This document shows positions 1 through 39,769 of a stretch of 64,000 bases of DNA, piece after piece (position 1 is the stretch's first letter; each line of letters begins with the position of its first letter). The notes beneath the pieces are model-generated. The model searched no databases. It was not told the DNA's origin and worked only from the letters and a program-made list of their open reading frames with translations. The stretch comes from Candidatus Omnitrophota bacterium. Its GTDB lineage: Bacteria; Omnitrophota; Gorgyraeia; Zapsychrales; Zapsychraceae. Location of the stretch: assembly GCA_023247445.1 (NCBI GenBank), contig JAHFGL010000008.1, forward strand, positions 13,774-77,773, given 5' to 3'. The translations under genes were made by a program, and so were the position numbers.

Positions 1-412
1 TGATTTCCTTGACAATAAATTCGATCTTGTTCATTCAAGTGGGATTCTCCATCTTAATTCCCGTTACCGGGATATTGTCAAAGAAATGTACAGAGTCTCT
101 GCAAAATATGTTTTATGCGACTTTCGGCTTACCGAAGGTTCTGATGTAATTGGTGAAATGGATGTAAATTTAGTCGGGCAAGAGAAATCTGTAGGAGCCC
201 TGCCTTATATTGTGCTCAATATAGAGCGCCATCTGGAATTTCTTAAGGCATTGCGACCTGCTGCTCTTTCAATTCAAGTCAGAGGATACGCGCACCCTCC
301 TTCAAAATTGGCGCGGATTAAAGTGGGCCGCATCTATATGGCTTTTTTTCTTATAACAAAAGAGAATTCGGCGAATCCTGCCACAAAAGTTGAAATAAAT
401 TTAAATGAGTGA
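1..412 (+). CDS. SAM-dependent methyltransferase, C-terminal fragment (5' end cut by the window edge)
   Basis: Open frame from nt 2 with no stop (DFLDNKFDLVHSSGILHL...), resembling the end of a class I methyltransferase fold. Ends TGA at 412, overlapping the next start. Confidence 0.35.
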   Translation, partial: DFLDNKFDLVHSSGILHLNSRYRDIVKEMYRVSAKYVLCDFRLTEGSDVIGEMDVNLVGQEKSVGALPYIVLNIERHLEFLKALRPAALSIQVRGYAHPPSKLARIKVGRIYMAFFLITKENSANPATKVEINLNE

Positions 413-1503
413 TTTTTATGATTGAACCCAAGGCACTTTTAAAAAAAATATCCCGAGTCTCTGGACATGGTGAGGCACGTATTGGCCGGGCTATGCGTTT
501 GGATCGCAACGAACGGACAACGCCATTAGCTAAGGATATTGTTGAAGCCGTATGGTCCCAAATTTCTCCGGAAGAAATTGTCGCTTATCCCGAACTGGAG
601 CCGCTTTATCAAAAACTGGCGCGATTTTTGAATGTTCTTCGCCAGAATATTCTTCTGTGCAGCGGTTCTGATACGGGTATTAAGAGTGTCTTTGAAACAT
701 ATGTGCAGCAAGGCGATGAAGTGGTCATTTTGACACCGAGTTATGGAATGTTTTCTGTCTATTGCGATATGTTTGGAGCCACGAAGATTCTTATGCACTA
801 CGATGAGGATTTTTTTCTGCCTGTAAAACGAATAACTGAGAAAATTAATCCCAAAACAAAGCTTGTCATATTAGCTAATCCTAACCATACCGGAACGGTT
901 ATCCAAGAGAAAGATATCCATTCCATCATCGAATACGCGGCCCAGTACAACACCCTCGTTCTGGTCGATGAGGCTTATCACCATTTTTATCCAGAGACCA
1001 TTATTTCTTATATCGGCCAATATGATAACTTAATTGTGGTCCGTAGCTTTTCTAAGGCTTTTGGCATTGCGGCGTTACGTGTAGGATATCTTATAAGTCA
1101 GACACAAAATATTCAAAATTTAGATAAAGTGCGATTGACGCACGAAATTACCAGTGTTTCGGCGAAGTTCGCGGCGTATCTTATTGATCATCCAGAAATT
1201 TATCAGGCATATGTGAAGGATGTTGAAGAGGGAAAAAGTTATATTGCCAAAGAATGTCAGAAAATAGGAATTACGGTGCTGCCATCAACGACTAATTTCT
1301 GTTTTTTTCGTCTGCCTGATTTTTGGGACGCGAAAGAAATGGTTCTTAGCTTAAAAAAACGAGATGTCCATATTAAAGGGCCGTTTCAAGAGGTTCCTCT
1401 TAATGGTCTTATACGGATTACCCTTGGTCCCGAAAAGCAGATGCGGGAATTTATGAATATTTTTAAAGAAATTTTAAAGGAGTGTCAAATTGAAGCGAAA
1501 TAA
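409..1503 (+). CDS. Class I/II PLP-dependent aminotransferase, histidinol-phosphate aminotransferase (HisC)/CobD-like
   Basis: Contains the SFSKAFGIAALRVGYLIS motif with the PLP lysine typical of HisC and threonine-phosphate decarboxylase. 364 aa. ATGA overlap with the upstream gene. Confidence 0.75.
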   Translation: MIFMIEPKALLKKISRVSGHGEARIGRAMRLDRNERTTPLAKDIVEAVWSQISPEEIVAYPELEPLYQKLARFLNVLRQNILLCSGSDTGIKSVFETYVQQGDEVVILTPSYGMFSVYCDMFGATKILMHYDEDFFLPVKRITEKINPKTKLVILANPNHTGTVIQEKDIHSIIEYAAQYNTLVLVDEAYHHFYPETIISYIGQYDNLIVVRSFSKAFGIAALRVGYLISQTQNIQNLDKVRLTHEITSVSAKFAAYLIDHPEIYQAYVKDVEEGKSYIAKECQKIGITVLPSTTNFCFFRLPDFWDAKEMVLSLKKRDVHIKGPFQEVPLNGLIRITLGPEKQMREFMNIFKEILKECQIEAK

Positions 1504-2287
1504 TTCTACCATCAAAAAAAGAACAAAAAGAATTCCAGTCCTTGGGGCTATCCCCGCCAGAATGGGTTCCAGCCGTTTTCCCGGGAAACCTCTAAAACTT
1601 ATCGCTGGAAAATCCATGATATGGCATGTTTGGCAGCGGGCTTTGTTAAGTGGTGTTCTGGATGACTTAGTAATTGCCACTTGTGATGAGGAGATTAAAA
1701 CAGCCGCTGAGGAGTTCGGGGCGAAAGTTGTAATGACCTCCGACAAACACACGCGGGCTAACGATCGGGTCGCTGAGGTCGCCAGTAAAATTCCCTGCGA
1801 AATTATTTTAAATATTCAGGGGGATGAACCATGCTTGAATCCACAATTAATCCGCGATGTGGTTAACCATATTCGTAAAAATCCGCATGTGCAATGTTCG
1901 AATCCCGTGGCGGTTATTGAAACAAAGGAAGAAAGAGAAACCCCCCATGATATTAAGGTTTGTTTTGATTTAAATGGAAGAATTGTTTATTTTTCCCGCT
2001 GTCCGGTTCCCTCAGATTCGGTCGTTGAGAGAAAATATCCTTGTTACCGGCAGATCCCTATCTTGGCATTCCGGAGTGAATTTTGTCAAAAATTGGCTAA
2101 GCTTAAACCGGGGCCCCTAGAGTTGCAGGAAGGCACCGATTTATTGCGGGCGGTTGAGCATAATTTACCGGTTCATATTTTAAAAACGAAATATCAAACC
2201 AAAGGCGTGGATATCCCTAGTGATATCCAAGAAGTGGAGAAACGCATGGAGAAAGATCCGATTTACAATCGGTATCGTTTCAAATAA
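1490..2287 (+). CDS. CMP-ulosonic acid synthetase family cytidylyltransferase (KdsB/NeuA-like, CTP_transf_3)
   Basis: N-terminus IPVLGAIPARMGSSRFPGKPL matches the KdsB/NeuA signature (IIPAR..S.RlPgKpL). 265 aa. Confidence 0.75.
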   Translation: MKRNNSTIKKRTKRIPVLGAIPARMGSSRFPGKPLKLIAGKSMIWHVWQRALLSGVLDDLVIATCDEEIKTAAEEFGAKVVMTSDKHTRANDRVAEVASKIPCEIILNIQGDEPCLNPQLIRDVVNHIRKNPHVQCSNPVAVIETKEERETPHDIKVCFDLNGRIVYFSRCPVPSDSVVERKYPCYRQIPILAFRSEFCQKLAKLKPGPLELQEGTDLLRAVEHNLPVHILKTKYQTKGVDIPSDIQEVEKRMEKDPIYNRYRFK

Positions 2288-2306
2288 CCATCAAGAGAGA
2301 TTACAA

Positions 2307-3407
2307 ATGAAAAAGAATATTAAAGTGGCGATTATTGGGTGCGGGCGGGTTTCTTTCCATCATGCAGAGATGCTGCGTGATGTATCCGAGGTTAAAGTAG
2401 TGGCCTGCTGCGATTTAATTAAAGAAAAAGTCGAGAAATTAGCTGGTGAACTTAACTGCCGGGCTTATCTTAATTATCATGAGATGTTGCAGGAAGAGGA
2501 AGTTGATCTTGTGACATTAGCCACACCCACTGGCGTCCATTTTGAGCATGTTCAAGATATATTAAACCATTATAAAGTGAATATCCTTTTGGAAAAACCG
2601 ATGGTTCTTAAAGTCTCGGATGGACTTGAATTAAAACGTTTAGCTGTTCAAAAAGAAGTACGGATATTTCCTGTCTATCAAAATCGTTTAAATAAGTCGG
2701 TTCAAAGAGTTAAAAGTGCCCTTTTGAATGGAGAACTGGGGGATATTGTATTGGGAACAGTAAGGGTTAGATGGTGCCGGCCCCAAAGGTATTATGATCT
2801 GGCCGCTTGGCGGGGAACGTATTCGATGGACGGCGGAGCGTATGTCAATCAGGGAATCCATTTTATTGATATTTTGAGATATTTGGCTGGAGAAATTCAA
2901 GCAGTGAACTCTTGTTTCGCTCGGCTTGGAGCTAAGCCTGAGGCTGAAGATACAGGGGTAAGTTTGCTTCGTTTTGAAAACGGCGCTTTAGGTCAATTAG
3001 AAATAACGATGGCCGCGCGTCCTCATGATTATGAAGCTTCTATTTCCATCGTTGGAAGTAAAGGATTGGCTGTTTTGGGAGGATGGTGCGCGAATAAGTT
3101 ATTGACGTTTTCTCCAAACCCGGAGGATGAACAGATTTTTAGTGAAGAAGTGCCCATGGCTTATGGATTTGGACACCGCGAGGTTTATCGTAGAGTCGCG
3201 AAGGTTTTATTAGAAGAAAATAATCCGCCAGTTGAATTTGAAGATGGGCTGAACACAATACGTTTACTGCACGCTCTTTACCGCAGTAACGAGGAACAAA
3301 AATGGATTAAGTTAGCCGATCAACTGGAATCGTTTCGTTTGGGGGAGCGCAATGAAAAGCTTTTAACCCCTTATCTAATCAAACCTCCACTGGTAAGTAC
3401 TAAATAG
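2307..3407 (+). CDS. Gfo/Idh/MocA family NAD(P)-dependent oxidoreductase
   Basis: N-terminal Rossmann KVAIIGCGRVSFHHAEML, a conserved EKP motif and ~365 aa. Start ATG 2307 with an AAGAGAG RBS. The track ORF extends upstream to 2220, inside the previous gene. Confidence 0.75.
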   Translation: MKKNIKVAIIGCGRVSFHHAEMLRDVSEVKVVACCDLIKEKVEKLAGELNCRAYLNYHEMLQEEEVDLVTLATPTGVHFEHVQDILNHYKVNILLEKPMVLKVSDGLELKRLAVQKEVRIFPVYQNRLNKSVQRVKSALLNGELGDIVLGTVRVRWCRPQRYYDLAAWRGTYSMDGGAYVNQGIHFIDILRYLAGEIQAVNSCFARLGAKPEAEDTGVSLLRFENGALGQLEITMAARPHDYEASISIVGSKGLAVLGGWCANKLLTFSPNPEDEQIFSEEVPMAYGFGHREVYRRVAKVLLEENNPPVEFEDGLNTIRLLHALYRSNEEQKWIKLADQLESFRLGERNEKLLTPYLIKPPLVSTK

Positions 3408-3413
3408 GAAAGC

Positions 3414-4472
3414 ATGGTATCCACAGATGAAAAATTAAAAGTCGGAATCGCCGGATATGGCGTTGTCGGTAAAAGAAGAAGACAATTTATCGATCAAAAT
3501 CTCCATATGAAGACTATCGCGGTATGCGATAAAACGCTGCGTAAATCAGATCTTTTTATCAATGGCGTTAAATGTTGTCGTCATTATAAAGAGCTTCTTA
3601 AAACTCCCTTGGATGTTTTATTTGTGTGTCTGCCTAATTATTTAGCCGCGGAGGTGACGATGGCGGGGTTAGAGAAGGGACTGCATGTCTTTTGTGAAAA
3701 GCCACCGGGACGAAGTGTTGCGGATATCGAAAAAGTTATTGAAGCCGAAAAAAAATATCCAAAGTTGAAATTGAAATACGGTTTTAATCATCGTTATCAT
3801 GATTCGGTGAAAGAAGCTTTAAGGATTATTCAGTCCAAAGAATTCGGCGAGATTATCAACATCAGGGGTGTTTATGGAAAAAGTAAAATCATTTCTTTTG
3901 CCAGTGGATGGCGCGCTAAACGCAAATACGCCGGCGGTGGGATACTCTTAGATCAAGGTATTCATATGGTGGATTTGATGCAGTTATTCTGTGGGAAATT
4001 TGTTGAGGTTAAAAGTTATGTTTCAAATAGCTATTGGCACCACGATGTCGAAGATAATGTTTACGCCATTTTGCGTGATAAGAACAATCGTATTGCTATG
4101 CTTCACTCGAGCGCCACACAATGGCAGCATCAGTTTTCTTTAGATATTACTTTAACCAAAGGATCTCTAAGGCTGCAAGGGATTCTTTCCGGCTCTAAAA
4201 GCTATGGACAAGAACAGCTCGTTAAGGTCCGCCGCAGTGAGGCGGATATCGGCACGCAAAGTGAAGAGGTCATTAATTATCTAAACGACAATTCCTGGCG
4301 GGATGAAGTCAATGAATTTGCCGATAGCATCGTTAATGATAAGCCTACCTATGCGGGAACAATCTTTGATGCCCTTTCCACTATGCAGTTAGTGTACAAA
4401 ATCTATAGCGCCGATGCCGAGTGGAAAGAGAAATTTCTCAAAGAAGATTCCGCTAAGATTTTAACAGTTTAG
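3414..4472 (+). CDS. Gfo/Idh/MocA family oxidoreductase
   Basis: KVGIAGYGVVGKRR Rossmann, CEKP motif, 352 aa. Confidence 0.7.
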   Translation: MVSTDEKLKVGIAGYGVVGKRRRQFIDQNLHMKTIAVCDKTLRKSDLFINGVKCCRHYKELLKTPLDVLFVCLPNYLAAEVTMAGLEKGLHVFCEKPPGRSVADIEKVIEAEKKYPKLKLKYGFNHRYHDSVKEALRIIQSKEFGEIINIRGVYGKSKIISFASGWRAKRKYAGGGILLDQGIHMVDLMQLFCGKFVEVKSYVSNSYWHHDVEDNVYAILRDKNNRIAMLHSSATQWQHQFSLDITLTKGSLRLQGILSGSKSYGQEQLVKVRRSEADIGTQSEEVINYLNDNSWRDEVNEFADSIVNDKPTYAGTIFDALSTMQLVYKIYSADAEWKEKFLKEDSAKILTV

Positions 4473-4486
4473 AAATAGGAGACACT

Positions 4487-5107
4487 ATGAATACATTAGA
4501 AGAAATTTTTAGAGAGAGCAGTCTGCAGACAGATTATTTCAAACGGTATTGTCATTATCTGCAAAAATTGATTTCTGAGATTGATGTTGAATCGGTTAAA
4601 AAAGTTGTGGATTGTTTTCTGGAAGCTCGATGTAATAACAAAACAATTTATTTCGCTGGTAATGGCGGCAGCGCGGCAACGGCCTCGCATTTTGCTCAGG
4701 ACATGGGGGAGATTGGAAGAAAAATCCGCGGCAAAGGCTTCCGAACGCAGAGTATCAATGATAATGTCGCCGCGCTAACGGCTATCAGCAATGACTACAG
4801 CTACGATAGTATTTTCTCTATGCAGATCCAATACAACTTTGACGAAAAGGACATTTTAGTTGTTATTTCAGCCAGCGGCAACAGTCCGAATGTCATTAAT
4901 GCCGTCAATCTGGCTAAAGCTAAAGGCGGAATAACAGTTTGTTTGGTGGGATTTGATGGTGGTCGTTTAGCCCAAATTTGCGACCAGGTCATTCATATCC
5001 AAAGCAAAAAAGGAGAATACGGTCCCGTGGAAGATATTCACCTTATTTTAAACCATATGATTGTTTCCTACTTGATGATGGAATTAAAAAAAGAGAGTGT
5101 GTCTTGA
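4487..5107 (+). CDS. gmhA: SIS-domain sedoheptulose-7-phosphate isomerase (GmhA family)
   Basis: GNGGSAATASHFAQD, ISASGNSPNVINA and VGFDGGRLA align motif-by-motif with E. coli GmhA. 206 aa. Confidence 0.75.
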   Translation: MNTLEEIFRESSLQTDYFKRYCHYLQKLISEIDVESVKKVVDCFLEARCNNKTIYFAGNGGSAATASHFAQDMGEIGRKIRGKGFRTQSINDNVAALTAISNDYSYDSIFSMQIQYNFDEKDILVVISASGNSPNVINAVNLAKAKGGITVCLVGFDGGRLAQICDQVIHIQSKKGEYGPVEDIHLILNHMIVSYLMMELKKESVS

Positions 5108-6030
5108 AACACAAAGTTCTTATATCGACATCAACTTTTGGAGTATCCGATGACACGCCTTTAAAACGGCTTGCCCAAGCGGGATTGGAGGCCAACATTA
5201 ATCCCTACAAGCGTAAACTTTCTAAAGAAGAATTGCTAAATTTGTTGCCTGAGGTGACAGGATTAATCGCGGGCCTGGAAACATTAGATGAGGAAGTAAT
5301 GTCCCGGTCGGATTTAAAAGTTATCTCGCGTTGCGGGTCAGGATTGTCCAATATTGACATGCGGGCCGCAGAGAGATTAGGCATTAAAGTATGTAGCACA
5401 CCGCGGGCGCCGACGCAAGCGGTAGCGGAATTAACAATCGCCTGTCTGTTAAATTTATTGCGAGGAGTTTCCACCATGGATCAGGATTTACATCAAGGCC
5501 GTTGGAATAAACAGACCGGATTGCAATTAGAGGGCAAGACTATTTTGATCGTAGGCTGGGGCAGGATCGGACGGCGTGTGGCTGAATTGTTAAGACCGTT
5601 TCATGTGCGGATTATCGTTGTGGATCCATTTGTGCAAAACATTACCAAGCAGTTTGAATTTTTAACGCTGGCTCAGGGTTTACCTTTAGCGGATGTTATT
5701 ACCCTGCACTGCAGCGGTGAAGATTGTTTTTTTTCCGCTGGCGAGTTTGCTTTGATGAAAAAAGGAGCGTTTCTTTTGAACGCGGCCCGGGGAGGATTAA
5801 TTGACGAAAAAGCGTTAATAAAAGCCATTGATGAAAGACTTGTTGCCGGAGCTTGGTTGGATACTTTTGAACAAGAACCTTATGTGGGAGAATTAATGCG
5901 TTATCATCAGGTCCTTTTGACGCCTCATGTAGGATCTTACACCGAAGAATGCCGAAGGCAAATGGAGTTAGAGGCGGTTGAGAATCTTATTTTTGCTTTT
6001 GAAGAAATAGAAAGTCGATGTCAGATATAG
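5104..6030 (+). CDS. D-isomer-specific 2-hydroxyacid dehydrogenase (phosphoglycerate/erythronate-4-P dehydrogenase-like)
   Basis: NAD-binding motif GKTILIVGWGRIGRRVAELL plus a catalytic-domain R/E/H pattern. Probable TTG start at 5104 after an AAAAAGAGAG RBS. The track ORF start at 4978 overlaps gmhA. Confidence 0.7.
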   Translation: MKHKVLISTSTFGVSDDTPLKRLAQAGLEANINPYKRKLSKEELLNLLPEVTGLIAGLETLDEEVMSRSDLKVISRCGSGLSNIDMRAAERLGIKVCSTPRAPTQAVAELTIACLLNLLRGVSTMDQDLHQGRWNKQTGLQLEGKTILIVGWGRIGRRVAELLRPFHVRIIVVDPFVQNITKQFEFLTLAQGLPLADVITLHCSGEDCFFSAGEFALMKKGAFLLNAARGGLIDEKALIKAIDERLVAGAWLDTFEQEPYVGELMRYHQVLLTPHVGSYTEECRRQMELEAVENLIFAFEEIESRCQI

Positions 6031-6764
6031 ATCTGCTGGAAAATTTAGATATCGCTAAAGTAGCGGCTAAGACAGCTGGACAATTTCTCATCAAGCAACA
6101 GCATTTGGCTCGACGTGTGTCTCAGGAACTCTTTCATGATGTGAAAATCAACGGAGACGTTGAGGCCGAGCAGATCATCCTGGAATATTTAAGGAGGCGC
6201 AGTAATTTTGCCATATTATCAGAAGAAACAGCTTCGCCAGATAAAGGGAATCAAGATTATCGTTGGATTGTTGATCCCATTGATGGGACTTTAAATTATT
6301 TTCAAAAGATTCCATTTTGTTGTGTTTCTATTGGTCTTTGGCAAGGGCAGAAGCCAATTTTAGGAGCCGTTTACGATTTTAATAGAGATGAACTATTCTC
6401 AGGAATCGCTGATGAGAAGGCATGGCTTAATGATGTTTTTGTGAAAGTGAGCAAAACCAAAACCAAAGAAAAAGCGGTTCTCTGTACAGGCTTTCCGGCT
6501 CTCACAGACTATTCTCAGGATGCTATACAAAATTTTGTCAAACAAATACAGAATTATAGAAAGATCCGTCTTTTGGGTTCCGCAGCTTTATCCATTGCGT
6601 ATGTCGCCTCAGGGAAGGTAGATGCTTATTGTGAGCGTGGTATTATGCTTTGGGATATCGCCGGTGGGATTCCTTTGTTGTTGGGCGCTGGTGGAAAAGT
6701 TCACATGGAAAAAGCAACCGAAGATAACAGTTTCAATGTTTATATCAGCAATGGATACATCTAA
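6018..6764 (+). CDS. Inositol monophosphatase family phosphatase (SuhB/CysQ/HisN-like)
   Basis: WIVDPIDGTLNY metal-binding motif. 248 aa. Confidence 0.7.
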   Translation: MSDIDLLENLDIAKVAAKTAGQFLIKQQHLARRVSQELFHDVKINGDVEAEQIILEYLRRRSNFAILSEETASPDKGNQDYRWIVDPIDGTLNYFQKIPFCCVSIGLWQGQKPILGAVYDFNRDELFSGIADEKAWLNDVFVKVSKTKTKEKAVLCTGFPALTDYSQDAIQNFVKQIQNYRKIRLLGSAALSIAYVASGKVDAYCERGIMLWDIAGGIPLLLGAGGKVHMEKATEDNSFNVYISNGYI

Positions 6765-6798
6765 TCCGATGTGAAGCAGAAAGTCATGGGTCATAACT

Positions 6799-7893
6799 AT
6801 GCCAGATTATTGTGAGTATTCTTTTTCTGCCGATTTTGTAAATCGGCTGCGTAAGTACGTAACATCAAGGGAATACCAAGATGTTGCAACTTATTCAAAA
6901 AGCGAATACTGGCAGCATTTTTCCGATGTTATTGACATTCGTTTCCTTGATAACAAGGTCATGTTAAAGGGGGAGTCAGGCTTTTATATCCCACAAAGAA
7001 AAGATGTGCAGAAGAGAGTCAAAAGAAATGTGACTAAGCTCATTCGGGAACCTTTGAGTTTAATACCATTTTTAAGAAGGAAAATTGGAATGCAGACATC
7101 AGAGATAAAATTATTAAATTATTTTGATGCTTTTGATAAAGTGATGGGCCACGATCGTGTTGCCAATATCGTCCTATCTCCCAATCGAATTAATTTCAAG
7201 GAATTGGCACAAAAACCGGGAATAATTTCTTCTGTTGATGATATGCGCCAGCAATTTTTTGCAAAAGACAAGTACAGTTTAAATGCTCAGATAGTTGAAG
7301 CTTATTATTATTACAACCTGTTGTCTGGTTTTCTAGACCCGACTTCAATTAAAACAGCATTGGAGATAGGTGGGGGAAACGGTAACCTGGCGTCATTATT
7401 TTATAGTTCAATGGATAATTGTACCATCATAAATGTAGATTTGCCCAAGACGCTTTGTCTGGCCATTGTGTTTATCGCAGATTTATTCCCGCAGGCAAAA
7501 ATGCTGTTGCCTCATGAAGAGCGTTCACAAGATTTGAATCATTACGATTTTATTTTTCTTACACCAAAGCAAATTTATATGATCGAGGATAACACCATTG
7601 ACTTGGCGATTAATACCGATTCATTTCAAGAAATGCCTCATCGGCAGATTAGTGAATATTTTAAGTTAATTCAAAGATGTTGTAAGAAGAATGCCTATTT
7701 CTTTACTTCTAATAGAGTAGAAAAGATTCCTTGTGGGCCCAATAATCAGCAAGAAACTTCTGAAACGCCCACCCGCTTTTCAGACTATCCATGGGATTCA
7801 GCCAATGAAGTGTTGGTTTACGAAATATGTAGACTAAAGAGGTTAGTTCAATTAGATGATGTGTTTATTCGTCTGGAGAGAGTAAAAAAATAA
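6799..7893 (+). CDS. Putative SAM-dependent (sugar O-)methyltransferase
   Basis: LEIGGGNGNLA looks like glycine-rich motif I of class I methyltransferases, followed by acidic INVDL. Otherwise unrecognised. 364 aa. Confidence 0.4.
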   Translation: MPDYCEYSFSADFVNRLRKYVTSREYQDVATYSKSEYWQHFSDVIDIRFLDNKVMLKGESGFYIPQRKDVQKRVKRNVTKLIREPLSLIPFLRRKIGMQTSEIKLLNYFDAFDKVMGHDRVANIVLSPNRINFKELAQKPGIISSVDDMRQQFFAKDKYSLNAQIVEAYYYYNLLSGFLDPTSIKTALEIGGGNGNLASLFYSSMDNCTIINVDLPKTLCLAIVFIADLFPQAKMLLPHEERSQDLNHYDFIFLTPKQIYMIEDNTIDLAINTDSFQEMPHRQISEYFKLIQRCCKKNAYFFTSNRVEKIPCGPNNQQETSETPTRFSDYPWDSANEVLVYEICRLKRLVQLDDVFIRLERVKK

Positions 7894-7935
7894 TTTTGTT
7901 GGATCTAGAACATCATATTGTAAAAGTTTACTTAT

Positions 7936-9891
7936 ATGTCTGTTGTGGAAAACAAAGGAGAACATAAAATTTTATGGGTATGCTGGGAGAAACCGGATAT
8001 TTCTCCAACGGCCGATATGGTGGCTTTAAGCTTTCTTAAACCCAGCGTTGAAGACGGGTTAAAGGGGCAATGGTCAGTTCCTTTGATTTCAGCGCGAGAA
8101 GTTGTTTCCGAGGTTAAAGAAAAAGCCTTAAATTTGTATATCGATATCATTGCCCAAATAGGCATCGTATCTTTAAATGGCATGACATTTCGCAAAGCTT
8201 TGTGTGGCAGTGATGAAGTGAGTTCTTGGTGGTTTCATAAAGCAGCCTGTAAGGATTGTGAAAGCGAACCGACATTTAATCAGATCATTCAGATTCTAAC
8301 TATTCAGCGGATTGCTCAGGAATATCAATGCACGGACATTATTCTTTGCGGCGGGCCATATGAAATCGCACAGGTTTTAAGCAATATGTTTCCCATAAAG
8401 ATTTTAAATTGTAAAAAGCAATCTTTATTATTTCTCTGCGGATTTTCACTGCTTCGCCGGTTTAAGTTCGTTCTGAAATTTTTATACGAGTGGATGTGTC
8501 TTAAGCGCTGTGTTTGTATTCCCGAGAATAGTATAGATATATTATTTTCCGGTTTCTGGGATTGGAGTGTCAAGGAAAATCCTTTAACGGCTAAACTCGA
8601 AGATCGGTATTTTCGGGCCGTCCCGGAAAAATTGCATAACCAGGGTATGCGGCTTGGTTGGTTAACATGGTTTTATAATAATTATGAAACGAATAAACCG
8701 CGACGATCCATTTTTAAGGTTATCGAACCTTTGGCGAAACATTCCCGCATTATCATCGCCCAATGTTTCTTAAGCATAGGGGAGATTTTTCGATCGGTGA
8801 CGCGGTTTAAGCCGTTCTTTACTTTTCTAAGGTATCAGCACCAGGAAGCGTTCAAAAATATTTTTAAACGGAACGGTTTAAATTTTTATCCGCTCCTCAA
8901 GAAATGGCTGTATGCCGGGTTTTTAGATGGGACACTTCCTTATCATGAATTAATTTGTTTGGCTCATAGAAAGGCAGTTCAAAAATATCAGCCTAAGGCC
9001 GTTGTGAGTTTTCTTAATTTTTTCCCGTATGCCCGTGCGTTGTGTGCCGGTGTCAAAAAAGGGTGTCCTTCATGTGCGGTGTATGATATGCAGCACGCGA
9101 GCTATGCATGGGAAGATACTATTGGAAGGCTCGATAGCCGTTGGGAATTCGATGGCATCCCGGATGGATGCTCAATACCGCATGCGGATTACATGTTTGT
9201 GATGGGGGAATTAGGCAGGGATATTTTTATGAAAAGCGGGTTTTCGGACAAACAAATACTATTGACAGGGTCATCCCGTTATGACGAGGCATCTTCGGTG
9301 GATGTGAATAATGGCCGAGACCGCAAATTTGGGAAAAATATTCTTATCGTGGCCGCGCTCAATAAGGAATTGGAGTTGGAGATGGTCGATTGTGTCTATA
9401 TGGTATTTTCTCAATTTCCCGATGTGTCAATTCATCTGCGTTCCCATCCTTTTTCTGATATCCGCTCAGCCATTCAGGCTCAACGATACGGGGACAAAAT
9501 TCATGTTACTTCTGGCACGGCACTCCATGAAGATTTGTCCCATGCCGATATCGTTATTTTTTCATATTCCACGGTTGCGGAAGAAGCTTTTATTCAAGGT
9601 GTTCCGGTTTGGCAGTGGATTTCCACGGGATATAATGCCTCGGCCTTTAGAGATATTAAAGTAGCTCCTGTTTTTTCTTCCGTTAAAGGACTTATTCAGT
9701 TGTATAAACAGTTTTTAAAAGATCCTCAACAGTTTATTCCGACTGTTGAACAGCGACAATTGGTCAAGAAAAAGTGTTTTTATATTAGAGAGGATGGTCT
9801 TCCTTCGGATAATATTGTAGAAGCCTTGGTTTTACAGTGTGGAATAGGAAAGGATCGCAATATTCCCGAACAAAAGGTGACGGTGGGATGA
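7936..9891 (+). CDS. Hypothetical protein with a TagF/KpsS-like GT-B C-terminal domain (possible CDP-alditol or CMP-sugar transferase)
   Basis: 651 aa. The C-terminal HADIVIFSYSTVAEEAFIQGVPVW parallels the TagF 'ADILITDYSSVFFDF...KPIIFY' motif. Confidence 0.35.
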   Translation: MSVVENKGEHKILWVCWEKPDISPTADMVALSFLKPSVEDGLKGQWSVPLISAREVVSEVKEKALNLYIDIIAQIGIVSLNGMTFRKALCGSDEVSSWWFHKAACKDCESEPTFNQIIQILTIQRIAQEYQCTDIILCGGPYEIAQVLSNMFPIKILNCKKQSLLFLCGFSLLRRFKFVLKFLYEWMCLKRCVCIPENSIDILFSGFWDWSVKENPLTAKLEDRYFRAVPEKLHNQGMRLGWLTWFYNNYETNKPRRSIFKVIEPLAKHSRIIIAQCFLSIGEIFRSVTRFKPFFTFLRYQHQEAFKNIFKRNGLNFYPLLKKWLYAGFLDGTLPYHELICLAHRKAVQKYQPKAVVSFLNFFPYARALCAGVKKGCPSCAVYDMQHASYAWEDTIGRLDSRWEFDGIPDGCSIPHADYMFVMGELGRDIFMKSGFSDKQILLTGSSRYDEASSVDVNNGRDRKFGKNILIVAALNKELELEMVDCVYMVFSQFPDVSIHLRSHPFSDIRSAIQAQRYGDKIHVTSGTALHEDLSHADIVIFSYSTVAEEAFIQGVPVWQWISTGYNASAFRDIKVAPVFSSVKGLIQLYKQFLKDPQQFIPTVEQRQLVKKKCFYIREDGLPSDNIVEALVLQCGIGKDRNIPEQKVTVG

Positions 9892-10985
9892 TGCAGAAAG
9901 CAAATGTTCTCATAACCGGTGGTGCAGGATTTATTGCCAGTCATTTGGTTGATCTTTTGGTTTCCCAGGGTCATACGGTTAGCATCATCGATAATTTTTC
10001 GACCGGAAGAAGAGAGAATCTCCTTCACCAAGAAGGTCAAGTGCATATCCTTGAAGCGGACATTACTGATTTCAATGCGATTTTCTCTTATTTTGCCGGT
10101 AAAGATATCGTTTTTCATCTGGCGGCTTTAGCCGATATTGTGCCATCTATCGTCAATCCGCGAGGGTATTATGCCTCGAATGTCATGGGAACGATGAATG
10201 TTGTTGAGGCGGCGCGGTTATGTGGTATTAAAAAAGTTGTATATGCGGCTTCATCATCCTGTTATGGTATCCCTACGGAAGAATTTTATCCCACTTCGGA
10301 AAAGGCGCCGAGTAGTCCGCAGTATCCCTATGCGTTGACGAAATATCTGGGTGAAAAAACTCTTCTTCATTGGGGAAAGGTTTATGATTTGGCGGTTATT
10401 TCTCTTCGGTTATTTAATGTGTATGGACCAAGATCAAGGACTTCAGGAACTTATGGTGCGGTTTTTGGCGTTTTTCTGGCGCAAAAATTGGATGGTAAGC
10501 CTTATACAGTTGTCGGCGATGGCAATCAGACCAGAGATTTTGTTTATGTTACGGATGTTGCCGAAGCATTTACCGTGGCCGCTTTTTCGAACGTCAAAAA
10601 TGAAATTTTCAACGTTGGAACGGGTGATCCGCAAAGTATTAATAAATTAGTCGCTCTTTTGGGAGGCAAAAAGGTTAATATTCCCAAACGTCCCGGAGAG
10701 CCCGACTGCACCTGGGCCGATATTCATAAAATTAAATCCATGTTAGGATGGCAGCCAAAGGTTTCTTTTGAAGAAGGCGTTGGAAAAATTTTGGAGCACA
10801 TTGATTATTGGAAGGAAGCTCCCGTTTGGACACCGGAAACAATTGAAAAGGCCACCGAAGAGTGGTTTAAATATTTGAATGGCCGGGAATTATCGACCAT
10901 TCATCCCGAGAAGCGAAGCGATGAGGGATCTACGCTTCGCGATCCTTTGCCATCCGGGCTTCAGGATGAACGCTTGGGTAAGTAA
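9888..10985 (+). CDS. NAD-dependent sugar-nucleotide epimerase/dehydratase (extended SDR)
   Basis: VLITGGAGFIASHLV Rossmann and YxxxK region. ATGATG start with ATGA overlap onto the upstream stop. Confidence 0.8.
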   Translation: MMQKANVLITGGAGFIASHLVDLLVSQGHTVSIIDNFSTGRRENLLHQEGQVHILEADITDFNAIFSYFAGKDIVFHLAALADIVPSIVNPRGYYASNVMGTMNVVEAARLCGIKKVVYAASSSCYGIPTEEFYPTSEKAPSSPQYPYALTKYLGEKTLLHWGKVYDLAVISLRLFNVYGPRSRTSGTYGAVFGVFLAQKLDGKPYTVVGDGNQTRDFVYVTDVAEAFTVAAFSNVKNEIFNVGTGDPQSINKLVALLGGKKVNIPKRPGEPDCTWADIHKIKSMLGWQPKVSFEEGVGKILEHIDYWKEAPVWTPETIEKATEEWFKYLNGRELSTIHPEKRSDEGSTLRDPLPSGLQDERLGK

Positions 10986-11014
10986 GTCTAATCCCGAGTG
11001 TTCAAAGGACTAAA

Positions 11015-12547
11015 ATGAATAACGGAATTCTAAAAAAAATACAATCACCAGAGAGATTGGCTAAAATCGTTGATGACCTCAAGAAAAAAGGGAAAAAGAT
11101 TGTTCTCTGTCATGGTGTGTTTGACATCGTTCATTTAGGACACATACGACATTTTAATCAAGCCAAACAAAACGGAGACATTCTTATCACCTCATTGACT
11201 AAGGATAAGTATGTCAAACGCGGGCCAGGACGTCCGTTCTTTAATGAGCGTCTGCGGGCTGAGACCTTGGCTTCGCTCGCTATGACCGATTATGTATCCA
11301 TGGTGGATTCACCGACCGCTGTGGATTTTATCAAAAAGGTTAAGCCTAATGTTTATGCCAAAGGCCCTGATTACAAAGCAAAGAATAAAGACGTCACGGG
11401 TAAAATATTTGATGAAGAAGATGCTATTGAAGCGGTGGGAGGAAGGCTTGTCTTTACCGATGATATCACATTCAGTTCCTCAAAACTCTTAAATGATTAT
11501 CTGGATGCGTATCCCGCGCGCACCGTTAAATACTTAAAGGCCATAAATAAGCGTTACACAATTGGCCAGATCGTTGAATCAATCGAGGCGTTAAAAAAAA
11601 TAAAAGTATTGGTGATTGGAGATGCCATCATCGACGAATATCATTACTGTTTCCCATTAGGCAAGTCATCCAAGGAGCATTTGGTTGTTAACCGTTACGA
11701 ATCGAAGGAAATGTTTGCCGGCGGTAGTTTGGCAACGGCTAATAACGCGGCGAGTGTCTGTGGTCAGGTAGATTTAGTGACGGTCCTGGGAAAAAAGAAA
11801 TCCTGCCAGGGCTTTATTGAAAATCATTTGAGTCTGAACGTCAGACCTAAATTTTTTTACCGCTTGGATACAGGAACAATCGTAAAAAGAAGATATGTCA
11901 GTAAGATACAAAATAGGAAGCTTTTTGAAATATGTTATATTAAAGATACGGATATTATTCAGAGCGAAGAAGATAAAATCATTGACCATCTTAAAAAAGT
12001 AATCAAAAATTATGACGTTGTGATCGTTTCCGATTATGGACATGGGTTTCTAACCAAGCGCATACGGGATTTAATTTGCTCCAAGGCCAGATATCTCGCC
12101 TTGAATGTTCAGACTAACAGCGCCAACATTGGATTTAATCTAGTGACAAAATACCCCAGGGCGGATTGCGTGTGCATTGATGAGTTAGAGTTGCGTTATG
12201 CCACTCACGAACGTTTTAGTGATCTGCGGGCGCATGCTAAGAAAGTGTATCAGCAGCTTAGATGCGAACATATCATCGCCACGCGCGGTTCATACGGGTC
12301 TTTGTGTTATTCGGTAAAAAATGGTTTTCATGAAACACCGGCCTTCTCCAGTCGTGTGGTAGACCCTATTGGGGCGGGGGATGCTTTTTTTGCTTTTATC
12401 GCCCCGTGTTTTGCCACCGGGATGCCGCAGGAATTGGTATCCTTTATCGGCAACGCCGTCGGTTCGCTGGCGGTGCAGATTGTTTGCAACCGCGAACCCG
12501 TAAAATCAGTGGATCTTATAAAGTTTATTACAAGATTATTAAAATGA
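11015..12547 (+). CDS. Bifunctional heptose-phosphate kinase/heptose-1-P nucleotidyltransferase, HldE(RfaE)-like with reversed domain order
   Basis: N-terminus LCHGVFDIVHLGHIRHF matches the HIGH-motif nucleotidyltransferase domain II of HldE. The C-terminal 330 aa is a PfkB-family carbohydrate kinase (VLVIGDAIIDEY...DPIGAGDAF). 510 aa. Confidence 0.7.
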   Translation: MNNGILKKIQSPERLAKIVDDLKKKGKKIVLCHGVFDIVHLGHIRHFNQAKQNGDILITSLTKDKYVKRGPGRPFFNERLRAETLASLAMTDYVSMVDSPTAVDFIKKVKPNVYAKGPDYKAKNKDVTGKIFDEEDAIEAVGGRLVFTDDITFSSSKLLNDYLDAYPARTVKYLKAINKRYTIGQIVESIEALKKIKVLVIGDAIIDEYHYCFPLGKSSKEHLVVNRYESKEMFAGGSLATANNAASVCGQVDLVTVLGKKKSCQGFIENHLSLNVRPKFFYRLDTGTIVKRRYVSKIQNRKLFEICYIKDTDIIQSEEDKIIDHLKKVIKNYDVVIVSDYGHGFLTKRIRDLICSKARYLALNVQTNSANIGFNLVTKYPRADCVCIDELELRYATHERFSDLRAHAKKVYQQLRCEHIIATRGSYGSLCYSVKNGFHETPAFSSRVVDPIGAGDAFFAFIAPCFATGMPQELVSFIGNAVGSLAVQIVCNREPVKSVDLIKFITRLLK

Positions 12548-12560
12548 AAGGTATCTCCCT

Positions 12561-13586
12561 ATGCGTAAATTGAATTCTGTTTTTGTGACCGGTGGGGCGG
12601 GATATGTCGGCGCCGTGCTGGTCCCGAAGTTATTAAAGAAAGGATACAAGGTTAAAGTTTTGGATTTATACACGTATGGGCTGGATGTCTTTGACGGTAT
12701 CGAGGATAAATCCAATCTTGAGGAAATTAAGGGGGATATTTGCGATGTAGATTTGTTGCAAAAAAGCCTGCGCGGTTGTGATAGTGTCATTCATTTGGCT
12801 TGTATTTCCAATGATCCGAGTTTTGAACTGAATCCCACGTTAAGCCGTAAAGTAAATTATGAAGCCTTTGAGCCGCTGGTACGTATCAGTAAAGAAAGCG
12901 GCGTGCGGCGTTTTATCTACGCTTCCACATGTAGTGTATACGGATTAAGTGATGCGGAAAATGTCACTGAGGATCATCCGCTGGTTCCTATCACGGATTA
13001 CAATAAATACAAAGGGTTATGTGAGCCTATCCTTTTTAAATACCAATCGCCGGAATTTACCGCTGTGACTATCCGGCCGGCCACTGTCTGCGGTTATTCT
13101 CCGCGGCAGCGATTTGACCTCACGGTCAACATTTTAACAAACCATGCGTATAACAACAATCATATCCTTGTCTTCGGCGGCAGTCAGGAGCGCCCGAATC
13201 TGCATATTGAAGATATGACGGATCTTTATGGCCTACTTCTGGAATTACCCGATGAAAAAATCGCCGGCAAGACCTACAACGCGGGTTATCAAAACCGCTC
13301 CGTTGCCGATATCGCTGAGATCGTTCGGCGTGTCATGGCCGAAGAATTGCCCGAGCGGCCCAAGATTACAGTTGAAACAAGACCTTCAGATGATATCCGC
13401 TCTTACCGCATTTCTTCAGAGAAGATAAAACGTGAATTAAATTTTGTCCCGCGGCACACAATTGAAGACGCGGTGCGGGATCTGATTAAAGCATTTAAGG
13501 CCGGTAAGTTTCAAGATTCCCTAAACAATATCCGGTATTTTAATATTAAAACGCTCAAATCAACGGAACCCCAATGCGCTGTCTAA
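12561..13586 (+). CDS. NAD-dependent epimerase/dehydratase (SDR)
   Basis: VFVTGGAGYVGAVLV. 341 aa. Confidence 0.75.
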   Translation: MRKLNSVFVTGGAGYVGAVLVPKLLKKGYKVKVLDLYTYGLDVFDGIEDKSNLEEIKGDICDVDLLQKSLRGCDSVIHLACISNDPSFELNPTLSRKVNYEAFEPLVRISKESGVRRFIYASTCSVYGLSDAENVTEDHPLVPITDYNKYKGLCEPILFKYQSPEFTAVTIRPATVCGYSPRQRFDLTVNILTNHAYNNNHILVFGGSQERPNLHIEDMTDLYGLLLELPDEKIAGKTYNAGYQNRSVADIAEIVRRVMAEELPERPKITVETRPSDDIRSYRISSEKIKRELNFVPRHTIEDAVRDLIKAFKAGKFQDSLNNIRYFNIKTLKSTEPQCAV

Positions 13587-14689
13587 TGAATATTCCTTAC
13601 GTGGATTTGGCCGAACAGCATACTTCCATTAAAGACGAATTACTAAACGCTGTGGCCAAAGTTTTAGATCATGGAAAATTTATTTTAGGAGAAGAGGTCG
13701 CCGAATTTGAAGAGCGTTTTGCTCAATTATGCGGCGTACAATATGCGGTGGGACTTAATTCGGGGACAGATGCGCTCATTTTAGCTTTACGGGCGCTTGG
13801 CATCGGTTCCGGGGATGAGGTCATTACGGCGGCCAATTCGTTTGTTTCTTCGGCAAGTTGCATTGTGTGTGCGGGTGCCAAGCCCATTTTTGTGGATGTC
13901 GGTGAAGATTATTTGATGGATCCCGCCTTAATTGAAAAAACGATCACGTCCAAGACAAAAGCGTTGTTGCCAGTCCATTGGACAGGTCGTCCGGGGGATA
14001 TGGAGGCTATTAAGACAATTGCTAAAAAATATAAATTAGCCGTCATTGAAGATTGTGCGCAGGCGGTAAATGCCGAGTATCAGGGACAAAAGGTTGGTTC
14101 ATTCGGCGATGCGGGCTGTTTTAGTCTGCATCCCCTTAAGACACTTAATGCCTGCGGCGATGGGGGAGTGCTTACAACTAACCGCCATGATCTTTATGAG
14201 AAAATATTGACGCTGCGGGATAATGGATTTTACCGGCGCAATGAGTGTGTTTCTTGGAGCAATAATTCCCGTCTTGATACAATTCAGGCGGCGATGTTAC
14301 TTGTCAAATTAAATTATCTGGAAAAATGGACGGAGCAACGGCGAAAGAATGCCCGCTTTTATCAACAGCATCTCAAGGATATATCCGGAATACAGTTGCC
14401 GCCTGAAGAAAAAGATATGCGCGCTGTTTATCATACGCTTATCATTCAGGCCGACCGCCGGGATGAATTACAGGCATTTCTCACCGAGCAGGGGATTGGG
14501 ACTAAGGTTCACTACGCTGTACCGATTCATCTGCAGCCGGTGGCTAAAGAATTGGGATATAAAGTGGGAAGCCTGCCAGTGACTGAGCGTCAGGCGGCCA
14601 GGGTTTTGAGTCTGCCGGTTTCTCAATCGTTGCAGCCGGAAATGCTGGAATATGTTGTTAATGCCATACGAGAATTCTACAAAAAATAA
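13574..14689 (+). CDS. DegT/DnrJ/EryC1/StrS family PLP-dependent sugar aminotransferase
   Basis: Typical family architecture with conserved Lys region (SFGDAGCFSLHPLKTL). 371 aa. Confidence 0.8.
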   Translation: MRCLMNIPYVDLAEQHTSIKDELLNAVAKVLDHGKFILGEEVAEFEERFAQLCGVQYAVGLNSGTDALILALRALGIGSGDEVITAANSFVSSASCIVCAGAKPIFVDVGEDYLMDPALIEKTITSKTKALLPVHWTGRPGDMEAIKTIAKKYKLAVIEDCAQAVNAEYQGQKVGSFGDAGCFSLHPLKTLNACGDGGVLTTNRHDLYEKILTLRDNGFYRRNECVSWSNNSRLDTIQAAMLLVKLNYLEKWTEQRRKNARFYQQHLKDISGIQLPPEEKDMRAVYHTLIIQADRRDELQAFLTEQGIGTKVHYAVPIHLQPVAKELGYKVGSLPVTERQAARVLSLPVSQSLQPEMLEYVVNAIREFYKK

Positions 14690-14697
14690 GGGAAATT

Positions 14698-15846: not shown

Positions 15847-16474
15847 TTTTGATAATACCGTTGTTAATTACGACGATGTTCTGTTTAAAACAGCCATGCA
15901 TCTGGGTTTCATCGATTCTAGTGCGGCTAAGGGTAAGAAAAATATCCGTGATTGTATCCGTCAGTTACCAGGAGGGGAAATTAAATGGCAGAAATTACAG
16001 GCGTATGTCTATGGCAAAGCGATGGATGAGGCGATATTAATAGACGGGGTGCGAGAGTTTTTTAATTCTTGCCGGCGGGAGAGTGTCCGCGCTTACATCG
16101 TCAGTCATAAGACTGAATTTGCCGCTTTAGGTATCGAGAAGATCAATTTGAGGGAAACAGCGTTAAATTGGATGAGAAAAAATAATTTCTTCGAAGAGAA
16201 AGGATTGGGGATTTCTGCGGATATGGTGTATTTCGAAGCCAGCCGCTTAGCGAAGATTGAACGCGTTAAACAGTTAGGATGCACGCATTTTATTGATGAC
16301 CTAGAAGAGACGTTTGGTGAAGAGGCGTTCCCAGCGAATATTCATAAAATACTTTATTCTTCTCATCATCATCCTGACGTCGATGTTTGGTCGGCTGATG
16401 CTAAGCCCAATGGTGTAACCGTCATGCGTAATTGGAGGGAGATTTATGACTATTTCTTTAATAAAAGAAGATAG
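15824..16474 (+). CDS. HAD-superfamily hydrolase/phosphatase
   Basis: ILGVDFDNTVV DxD motif at the N-terminus. ATG 15824 preceded by AGGAGA. The track ORF starts at 15770. Confidence 0.5.
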   Translation: MRCILGVDFDNTVVNYDDVLFKTAMHLGFIDSSAAKGKKNIRDCIRQLPGGEIKWQKLQAYVYGKAMDEAILIDGVREFFNSCRRESVRAYIVSHKTEFAALGIEKINLRETALNWMRKNNFFEEKGLGISADMVYFEASRLAKIERVKQLGCTHFIDDLEETFGEEAFPANIHKILYSSHHHPDVDVWSADAKPNGVTVMRNWREIYDYFFNKRR

Positions 16475-19299: not shown

Positions 19300-19312
19300 C
19301 AAGGGGGGAACG

Positions 19313-29801: not shown

Positions 29802-29811
29802 AAAAAGTTAA

Positions 29812-30312: not shown

Positions 30313-30321
30313 GAGGAGACC

Positions 30322-31170: not shown

Positions 31171-31184
31171 CTTAGAGATTTAAG

Positions 31185-39592: not shown

Positions 39593-39769
39593 ATGGCAGA
39601 AGAGCTATTGAAAGGAAATTTTAAAGTTAAAAATCCCGTTAAGGTAGAGAAGCAAGCAAAAAGTGAGCCAGTTCACGAACAGCTTCGTAAAAGGGCGCTT
39701 GCTTCCCTTGGTGGGAGTATGGTTTACATGGAACGAAAAAATCTCACTTGGGACGGAGAAAAAGGTTAA
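39593..39769 (+). CDS. Small Lys-rich hypothetical protein (58 aa), translationally coupled
   Basis: GGGGGTTGAT RBS before ATG 39593. Its stop TAA overlaps the ATG of the next gene (TAATG). Confidence 0.3.
   Translation: MAEELLKGNFKVKNPVKVEKQAKSEPVHEQLRKRALASLGGSMVYMERKNLTWDGEKG

Follow-up and report, generated by a model that had tools for sequence, protein, structure and literature searches.

A conserved aminotransferase–cytidylyltransferase cassette with an exchangeable phosphatase module in a glycan locus of a Candidatus Omnitrophota bacterium

Results

A conserved cassette and the exchange of one of its modules

The stretch of DNA analyzed here (the window) comprises 64,000 nucleotides of contig JAHFGL010000008.1 from a Candidatus Omnitrophota bacterium (assembly GCA_023247445.1, positions 13,774 to 77,773). 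Near its start lie genes for a HisC-like pyridoxal phosphate (PLP) aminotransferase (AT), a KdsB-like cytidylyltransferase (CT), two oxidoreductases of the Gfo/Idh/MocA family (GFO1 and GFO2), a GmhA-like sugar-phosphate isomerase (SIS), a D-2-hydroxyacid dehydrogenase (HADH) resembling phosphoglycerate dehydrogenase (PGDH), and a phosphatase of the inositol monophosphatase family (IMPase). These seven are adjacent members of one cassette (Table 1). An original prediction for this stretch had correctly placed AT with its SFSKAFG motif, CT, HADH, and IMPase with its DPIDGT motif, all found here on the + strand, but had left out GFO1, GFO2 and SIS, which lie between CT and HADH and are core members. 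The window is a glycan locus on one strand: the + strand carries all 56 open reading frames (ORFs) longer than 150 aa, and the GC skew is positive along the entire 64 kb. An independent ENA assembly (12.2 kb contig) shows an arrangement identical to that of the window, IMPase included, and matches the 308-aa gene call for HADH, so the arrangement is not an assembly artefact.

The relatives of AT (P numbers) and the loci that were read (L numbers) include a protein of 361 aa that is 100% identical to AT (P0001). Relatives that are 38-76% identical come mostly from uncultured bacteria, several of them labelled Omnitrophota, and one from Pedobacter yonginense. The cassette genes occur together in more than a dozen loci, among them Omnitrophota-like and Planctomycetes-like metagenome-assembled genomes and the cultivable Pedobacter. 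Since this grouping is found in several phyla, in part as gene fusions, it is not due to chance. AT, CT, GFO1, GFO2, SIS and HADH are all present in the JGI contig of P0012, L083 (Pedobacter), L092, L093, L100, L101 and the P0006 contig, and the set of AT, CT, GFO2, SIS and HADH recurs in L083, L092, L093, the JGI contig of P0012, L082 and L103. Relatives of GFO2 that are 56-84% identical were found in L083, L085, L087, L089, L092-L094 and L100-L103, and SIS is part of the cassette in L083, L085, L092, L093, L100, L101 and L103.

Three AT relatives are CT-AT fusions (P0098, P0106, P0110), and because such fusions exist, AT and CT are, judging by their sequences, functionally linked. A further relative (P0087) is a methyltransferase-AT fusion. 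In L001, HADH comes immediately after a CT-AT fusion; in L095, it comes after AT. GFO1 directly adjoins AT in L003, L083, L087, L089, L090, L092 and L093, and a GNAT acetyltransferase does so in L083, L085 and L091. An alignment-based scan of genome contigs with AT returned nearly exclusively housekeeping HisC proteins (27-36% identity), back-translated motifs being generic, and other cassette genes were shared in L003, L004, L014 and L029 only. Searches of the literature and of curated families found no paper or family describing the cassette. One preprint describes new CMP-ulosonic acids from Magnetospirillum; these are larger sugars, and it was set aside as not concerning the cassette.

The closest relatives that could be read, L100 and L101, encode proteins 61-89% identical to those of the window in the same gene order, from the upstream methyltransferase through the HldE-like gene. 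Their DNA aligns with the window at 72-76% identity over positions 20-5991; the alignment then breaks and resumes at 8227, inside the gene of a 651-aa protein (X651). The non-colinear segment (5992-8226) contains the NanM-like O-methyltransferase gene. In the relatives, the interval from HADH to the 650-aa protein encodes a short-chain dehydrogenase/reductase (SDR, adh_short) and a protein like dehydroquinate synthase (DHQS) matching TIGR04425; in the window, it encodes IMPase and the O-methyltransferase. The same SDR and DHQS-like genes hold the IMPase slot in L101 and the P0006 contig, and they complete the set in the six-gene loci except L100, where the contig ends inside the reductase gene. 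In the window, IMPase and the O-methyltransferase have thus replaced the SDR and DHQS-like module.

The DHQS-like protein of the sister loci scores 429 bits against TIGR04425 and 267 bits against aroB, and keeps nearly all active-site motifs of DHQS, among them DSxxGGK, KN, RxxxNxGHTFGHA, HGxA and DKK. We take the Arg of RxxxNxGH to be the carboxylate ligand of DHQS, one that is lost in sugar-phosphate cyclases. The sequence fits a substrate resembling 3-deoxy-D-arabino-heptulosonate 7-phosphate (DAHP), i.e. a 2-ulosonate 7-phosphate. No paper mentioning TIGR04425 was found in the literature search.

A third variant is represented by L102 and L103. It contains IMPase homologs (56-59% identical) together with CT, GFO2 (66%) and HADH (57%), and also an HpcH/HpaI aldolase, an FkbM methyltransferase and radical S-adenosylmethionine (SAM) enzymes. 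The aldolase is paired with the FkbM methyltransferase (L102 1681-3408, L103 11920-13645). L103 additionally carries SIS (46%) and AT (51%). In L102, IMPase again overlaps the end of HADH, and a TagF-type Glyphos_transf gene adjoins CT.

Table 1. Genes of the cassette and its immediate flanks (window coordinates).
Feature	Position	Strand	Remarks
MT0, class I SAM methyltransferase, 3' part (136 aa)	2..412	+	gene begins upstream of window
AT, HisC-like class I/II PLP aminotransferase, 361 aa	418..1503	+	alternative start GTG 409
CT, KdsB-like cytidylyltransferase, 265 aa	1490..2287	+	PF02348
GFO1, WlbA/WbpB-like Gfo/Idh/MocA oxidoreductase, 366 aa	2307..3407	+	
GFO2, second Gfo/Idh/MocA oxidoreductase, 352 aa	3414..4472	+	Pfam
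SIS, GmhA-like sugar-phosphate isomerase, 206 aa	4487..5107	+	SIS_2
HADH, PGDH-like D-2-hydroxyacid dehydrogenase, 308 aa	5104..6030	+	PF02826, PF00389
IMPase-family phosphatase, 248 aa	6018..6764	+	PF00459
NanM-like sugar O-methyltransferase, 364 aa	6799..7893	+	TIGR04371
X651, GT-B fold protein (TIGR04326-like), 651 aa, candidate transferase of activated product	7936..9891	+	
SDR epimerase/dehydratase, 365 aa	9888..10985	+	PF01370
HldE-like bifunctional nucleotidyltransferase + PfkB kinase, 510 aa	11015..12547	+	rfaE domain models

Family assignments of the cassette proteins

AT belongs to PF00155 (Aminotran_1_2; E 1.4e-46, 159.8 bits against a threshold of 19.7), and its SFSKAFG motif contains the invariant Schiff-base Lys (K213). 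At 242.6 bits, its best NCBIfam match, hisC TIGR01141, stays under the cut-off of 276.55; other hisC models give 134-164 bits against cut-offs of 374-540, and the match to TIGR01140 (CobD) is weaker still (127.2 bits, cut-off 290.55). Alignment to E. coli HisC shows that Lys213, Arg221 and Arg333 are kept. Arg333 corresponds to R335 of E. coli HisC, and Lys320 to R322; we take R322 and R335 to be phosphate-binding residues. The AT family has its own signature, consisting of NERT, NPNHTG (with a one-residue deletion, aligned with SPNNPTG of E. coli HisC) and IKGPF, where HisC has NEN(P/T) and NPNNPTG. NERT is present in 91 of 120 AT family members and in one of 80 genomic HisC sequences.

CT belongs to PF02348 (CTP_transf_3; E 2.8e-48) and scores 242 bits against the subfamily model NF003952, above the cut-off of 193. 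It falls just short of the equivalog kdsB TIGR00466 (155.0 bits, cut-off 155.2) and of NF009905 (251.2, cut-off 255). Its nearest solved relatives are KdsB/KpsU (E about 5e-37), and it is much nearer to KdsB than to NeuA. The catalytic and CTP motifs PARxxSSRxPGKPL, QGDEP and GVD are kept. Two segments differ, the SGT of HxSGTxR in KdsB being RAN and the RH-G-Y of RHxGxYxYR being RQ-P-L; both presumably line the sugar site. This pattern suggests that CT carries out KdsB chemistry on another sugar acid. KdsB-type enzymes activate 2-ulosonic acids, while TagD, IspD and LicC types make cytidine diphosphate (CDP)-alcohols.

The nearest solved relatives of GFO1 are WlbA structures (3q2k, E 2.1e-65; 3q2i, E 3.2e-62; residues 3-334), the next match having an E value of 4e-23; inositol dehydrogenases match at E 1e-21. 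Two DegT genes lie 10 kb downstream in the window, but the neighbor of GFO1 that is kept across loci is the HisC-like AT. GFO2 has inositol dehydrogenase, DgpA, glucose-fructose oxidoreductase and aldose-aldose oxidoreductase among its solved relatives. The top NCBIfam match of both GFO1 and GFO2 is IolG, far below its cut-off. WlbA is the UDP-GlcNAcA 3-dehydrogenase. In its ortholog WbpB, NADH is tightly bound, and 2-oxoglutarate serves to recycle the enzyme (PMC8651671). A gene for a flavin-dependent oxidase like GlcD and D-2-hydroxyglutarate dehydrogenase directly follows the cassette in Pedobacter yonginense (L083 17614-19098), consistent with the possible disposal of D-2-hydroxyglutarate formed by a WbpB-like GFO1.

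SIS matches SIS_2 (E 3e-18) and gives 109.1 bits against gmhA TIGR00441, below the cut-off of 209.45. Its solved relatives are exclusively phosphoheptose isomerases (GmhA; E 4e-26) and the GmhA-related DiaA. The best match of HADH is the PGDH structure 1wwk (E 2e-46), and its score against PGDH TIGR01327 is 198 bits, below the cut-off of 454. HADH keeps the catalytic Arg (NAARG) and His (TPHVG). The IVRS of PGDH is I-AGLE in HADH and in eight of the eight cassette homologs compared. A role of HADH as a 2-hydroxyglutarate recycler for GFO1 was considered and rejected: such a cycle has no net redox sink, and Pedobacter has the separate FAD oxidase.

IMPase, whose start overlaps the end of HADH by 13 nt, belongs to PF00459 (Inositol_P; E 6.9e-47, 160.6 bits against a threshold of 27) and contains the metal-binding motifs DPIDGT and WD (LWDIAGG). 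It scores far below the cut-offs of HisN TIGR02067 (109.7 bits, cut-off 275.15), SuhB NF008027 (127.9, cut-off 332) and the CysQ equivalog. The O-methyltransferase that follows matches TIGR04371 with 121 bits (cut-off 44) and has the lowest G+C content in the unit (0.363).

The flanks of the cassette and the rest of the window

MT0, the methyltransferase upstream of AT, is 68% identical to the one preceding AT in L101; a methyltransferase also precedes AT in L100 and the P0006 contig. Downstream, X651 has no Pfam domain, and a glycosyltransferase-B (GT-B) fold is predicted for it with confidence (pLDDT 90.5). About 90 homologs of some 650 aa each were found, with invariant R502-x-H504-P505 and E549-E550 motifs, and homologs 57-68% identical follow the cassette in close relatives. 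A fold search returned glycosyltransferases, TarL/TagF, WaaA and KpsC at similar scores. The fold is a generic GT-B one, and CMP-sugar glycosyltransferases and TagF-type phosphotransferases are matched about equally. In the corresponding slot after the cassette, L102 (10783-12744) and L103 (16669-18627) encode proteins of 652-653 aa without a Pfam domain, which gave no tblastn match to X651.

The SDR epimerase matches PF01370 (E 1.4e-60), is 75% identical to the gene product at the same position in L101, and matches heptose_epim TIGR02197 (E 9e-34) far below the cut-off. The HldE-like protein contains rfaE_dom_II at residues 18-149 and rfaE_dom_I (PfkB kinase) at residues 190-489, both far below their cut-offs, in a domain order opposite to that of E. 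coli HldE, the adenylyltransferase-like domain coming first. It is 68% identical to its counterpart in L101, and the gene is also present in the P0006 contig.

Further downstream, positions 25515-31874 form a nonulosonic-acid block. NeuB-like synthases are encoded there twice (25515-26630 and 30322-31170), and the other products are a B12-binding radical SAM enzyme (26599-28644), a hydrolyzing 2-epimerase of the NeuC type (28644-29801; TIGR03568, 415 bits), a small haloacid dehalogenase (HAD) phosphatase (29812-30312) and a protein with a weak match to CTP_transf_3 (31185-31874). The region 39748-43131 encodes three proteins that recur as a set immediately upstream of the cassette in the P0012 contig from JGI: an MptE-like protein, a radical SAM enzyme that binds B12, and a PseF-like cytidylyltransferase. 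They may serve as a second module for tailoring CMP-sugars, one that includes C-methylation. Two pairs of split transketolase-like genes for N- and C-terminal halves (17528-19299 and 43128-44899) suggest two-carbon chain extension or branching of sugars. The window also encodes a radical SAM/SPASM protein (19277-20386), an FkbM-domain protein (21268-22497) and, at 33827-35650, 45569-47727 and 48723-52769, tailoring and assembly functions that include a carbamoyltransferase, DUF4915, a sulfotransferase, a YfhO-like membrane protein and a third B12-binding radical SAM enzyme. The ORFs scanned in the window include no gene for an inositol-phosphate synthase, a DHQS-like protein, an HpcH aldolase or an ATP-grasp protein, and the 64 kb yielded no further his or ser genes.

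Discussion

Proposed pathway

The broader view has much stronger support than the specific reaction scheme given below: these genes form one dedicated cassette that ends in activation with cytidine monophosphate (CMP), in which IMPase is an exchangeable module for removing phosphate. We tentatively propose, as a plausible reading short of a probable one, that the genes at 2-7893 and the transferase at 7936-9891 specify a CMP-activated, aminated and methylated acidic sugar, namely a 2-ulosonic acid made without a synthase of the NeuB or KdsA type. Every step is inferred from family assignments and gene-neighborhood logic.

SIS would isomerize a ketose phosphate, most likely sedoheptulose-7-phosphate, to an aldose phosphate; GFO2 would oxidize C1 to give an aldonate phosphate, and HADH would oxidize C2 to give a hept-2-ulosonate 7-phosphate. 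Precedents for the HADH step are PdxB and, in reverse, the 2-ketoaldonate reductases. We favor this scheme because it is the simplest route from the CH2OH group of a ketose to a carboxylate and needs exactly these enzyme types. IMPase would then take off the terminal phosphate as an analog of KdsC. GFO1 would oxidize a ring hydroxyl, and AT would turn the resulting ketone into an amine, the 2-oxoglutarate made by AT re-oxidizing GFO1 as in the WbpB/WbpE pair. The methyltransferases would cap N and/or O, CT would make the CMP-sugar, and X651 would transfer it. In the sister loci, the same phosphorylated intermediate would be handled by the DHQS-like protein, acting as a phospho-lyase, and the short-chain reductase; the window's pair of IMPase and O-methyltransferase would accordingly represent an exchange of modules that alters the finishing of the phosphate end.

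In its most specific form, the proposal describes an aldolase-independent route to undescribed CMP-activated seven-carbon amino-ulosonic acids, in which sedoheptulose-7-phosphate is isomerized and oxidized at C1 and then C2, and the phosphate end is finished by hydrolysis and O-methylation in the window or by the DHQS-like phospho-lyase in the sister loci. We regard this full version as unlikely to hold in all its parts. An eight-carbon product derived from 3-deoxy-D-manno-oct-2-ulosonic acid (Kdo) by way of a housekeeping KdsA was considered and is not preferred, as SIS is GmhA-like rather than KdsD-like, and a DAHP-type DHQS-like enzyme cannot eliminate phosphate from Kdo 8-phosphate.

Several points weigh against the proposed route. 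The identity of the sugar and its carbon number are guesses, and the steps are predictions. The usual substrates of HisC-type enzymes are 2-oxo acids or keto-phosphates rather than ring ketones. GFO1 is absent from L102 and L103, although L103 has AT, and so the ketone for AT need not come from GFO1; a radical SAM/SPASM enzyme might replace GFO1, or AT might act on the 2-oxo acid made by HADH. L085 (Ga0265338_10000365, 10001-18213) contains AT, a divergent CT, GFO2, SIS, SDR, the DHQS-like gene and GFO1, with no HADH within the 21 kb read, which our working model leaves unexplained; because of this locus, HADH may be dispensable for making the DHQS-like substrate. If the DHQS-like protein cyclizes its substrate, the product would be a carbocycle, a poor glycosyl donor. 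The binding of carboxylate or phosphate by the DHQS and PGDH residues is assumed. Finally, a nucleoside diphosphate (NDP)-heptose could be the product of SIS, IMPase, the HldE-like protein and the epimerase acting on their own.

Comparison with known systems

The nearest known logic for the last steps is that of the amino sugar Kdo8N, in which the oxidase KdnB and the aminotransferase KdnA act before KdsB. KdnB is an iron alcohol dehydrogenase acting on the primary C8 hydroxyl, KdnA is not known to be HisC-like, and the backbone is Kdo made by KdsA. In Shewanella, oxidation and transamination of the free ulosonic acid precede CMP activation, according to Gattis et al. 2013 as cited in PMC5125639. 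The same order is proposed here for GFO1, AT and CT, and it fits the CT-AT fusions. The cassette differs in having a WlbA-like oxidase and a HisC-like aminotransferase and no KdsA or NeuB; neither NeuB nor KdsA was found near the L083 cassette. A second parallel is the WbpB/WlbA and WbpE/WlbC pair of the UDP-ManNAc(3NAc)A pathway, in which a WlbA-type oxidase is likewise coupled to an aminotransferase. As WbpB is recycled by 2-oxoglutarate (PMC8651671), a glutamate-dependent AT would be a natural partner of GFO1. In that pathway, however, the aminotransferase is of the DegT type and the sugar is UDP-linked, whereas the cassette has a HisC-like AT and predicted CMP-linked products.

The canonical CMP-Kdo pathway (KdsD, KdsA, KdsC, KdsB) shares with the cassette an isomerase, a ulosonate phosphate as proposed intermediate, a phosphatase and a KdsB-type enzyme, and the aldolase variant of L102 and L103 mirrors its four steps with non-orthologous enzymes. 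Unlike that pathway, the cassette has a GmhA-like isomerase without CBS domains, a phosphatase of the IMPase rather than the HAD fold, and no KdsA, and the ulosonate would be formed by two oxidations (GFO2, HADH) rather than by aldol condensation with phosphoenolpyruvate (PEP). PdxB/SerC of PLP synthesis and SerA/SerC/SerB likewise place a D-2-hydroxyacid dehydrogenase for a phosphorylated aldonic acid beside an aminotransferase, with the phosphatase acting last, but HADH lacks the VRS motif, AT is HisC-like and not SerC-like, and the phosphatase is dispensable in relatives. Of the neighborhoods of TIGR04425, annotated as 'AroB-related putative sugar phosphate phospholyase (cyclizing)', only the TIGR04425 gene and its SDR partner are missing from the window, and IMPase and the O-methyltransferase stand in their place; the remaining genes are all present.

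Alternative explanations

The original prediction read the locus as a candidate pathway to a phosphorylated amino-alcohol or another non-sugar substituent. One part of it stands: these are dedicated genes that belong together, and their pathway probably involves an oxidation like those of PdxB and SerA as well as a phosphorylated intermediate. It is the serinol, serine or glycerate type of product that the neighborhoods do not support. In that explanation, a SerA-like HADH, a SerC- or Cj1437-like AT and a SerB- or HisN-like IMPase make a small phosphorylated compound (serinol phosphate, phosphoserine or a glycerate derivative), which is cytidylylated and attached. The best family matches of HADH (PGDH) and AT (HisC) agree with it, as do the conserved anion-binding Arg333 and the conservative replacement of Arg322 by Lys, the succession of AT or its CT fusion and HADH in L095 and L001, the overlap of HADH and IMPase, the Glyphos_transf gene beside CT in L102, and the resemblance of X651 to TarL/TagF as much as to glycosyltransferases. 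Cj1437, presumably a member of the HisC/CobD superfamily, offers a precedent, since the Cj1435-Cj1438 genes of Campylobacter jejuni, in a glycan locus, likewise pair a PLP enzyme outside housekeeping metabolism with its own phosphatase. The serinol-phosphate/ethanolamine-phosphate system, though, depends on amide ligation by an ATP-dependent enzyme (Cj1438), has its HAD phosphatase (Cj1435) act after that step, and contains no cytidylyltransferase (PMC11800397). The cassette shows none of these features, and no Cj1438-like ATP-grasp amide ligase is among the window ORFs scanned. IMPase, moreover, is not a conserved partner of AT and HADH: most cassettes lack it, and SDR and DHQS-like genes hold its slot in the closest relatives. 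The partners that AT does keep are WlbA-like GFO1, GFO2, SIS, methyltransferases and sometimes a GNAT protein, and because these are sugar-type enzymes, a sugar-sized substrate is the better expectation; a small substituent leaves the core members SIS and GFO2 without a role. CT is of the KdsB type rather than CDP-alcohol-forming, and the Arg-Ser of the PGDH VRS motif is missing from HADH in every cassette member compared. We regard a small substituent as distinctly unlikely. Unlikely too, though with somewhat more to be said for it, is a split of the locus into two pathways, in which IMPase serves as an analog of the 7-phosphatase GmhB, and SIS, the HldE-like protein, IMPase and the SDR epimerase make an NDP-heptose, while AT, CT, GFO1, GFO2 and HADH belong to a separate pathway sharing the locus. 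Candidates for all four activities of the ADP-heptose route do lie within 4487-12547, the epimerase matches heptose_epim, and the epimerase and HldE-like genes are syntenic in relatives. Yet the relatives that have these two genes lack IMPase, which precisely replaces SDR and DHQS-like and comes after HADH in two variants. SIS is also retained in the cassettes of Pedobacter, L092, L093, L085 and L103, with no HldE-like gene detected within 10 kb, and the rfaE, gmhA and heptose_epim scores are all far below their cut-offs.

An aminocyclitol pathway is very improbable. It would have IMPase release myo-inositol from inositol phosphate (or, in the sister loci, a DHQS-like cyclase and SDR form a cyclitol), an IolG-like GFO oxidize it and AT yield an inosamine for O-methylation, as in the hygromycin A route. 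A phosphatase of this family combined with a dehydrogenase, an aminotransferase and a methyltransferase matches aminocyclitol logic, both exchanged modules could supply a cyclitol, and IolG is the top NCBIfam match of both oxidoreductases, far below its cut-off as it is. But GFO1 is far nearer to WlbA than to inositol dehydrogenases (E 2e-65 against 1e-21), SIS, HADH and the KdsB-type CT are left without a role, the scanned ORFs of the 64 kb window include no inositol-phosphate synthase, and the DHQS-like protein keeps the Arg of RxxxNxGH, whose role we assume. To the idea that housekeeping copies of hisC, hisN, serA and kdsB lie in a glycan locus by coincidence we give almost no credence, even though NCBI-style rules would call CT KdsB on account of NF003952. 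The hisC, PGDH, hisN, suhB and gmhA equivalogs all score below their cut-offs, the AT signature sets it apart from the 80 genomic HisC sequences, synteny extends across phyla and is accompanied by gene fusions, and the window holds no further his or ser genes. The original prediction was right to treat its genes as dedicated glycan-locus paralogs rather than stray his or ser genes.

Implications

To our knowledge, PEP-dependent aldol condensation is the source of all known ulosonic acids of bacterial surfaces (Kdo, sialic, legionaminic and pseudaminic acids). If the proposed route is correct, it would represent a new biosynthetic logic, in which KdsB-type activation is reached without a PEP-dependent synthase, and probably a new family of surface sugars; the DHQS-like route could then yield a deoxy or even a carbocyclic 'carba-ulosonic acid' donor. 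The alternation of IMPase and O-methyltransferase with the DHQS-like protein and reductase is a natural comparative experiment, and it gives a testable role to the hypothetical equivalog TIGR04425 and to a large family of IMPases of about 250 aa from glycan loci. Automated annotation of these genes as hisC, serA, kdsB, gmhA and suhB would mislead the metabolic reconstruction of uncultured lineages.

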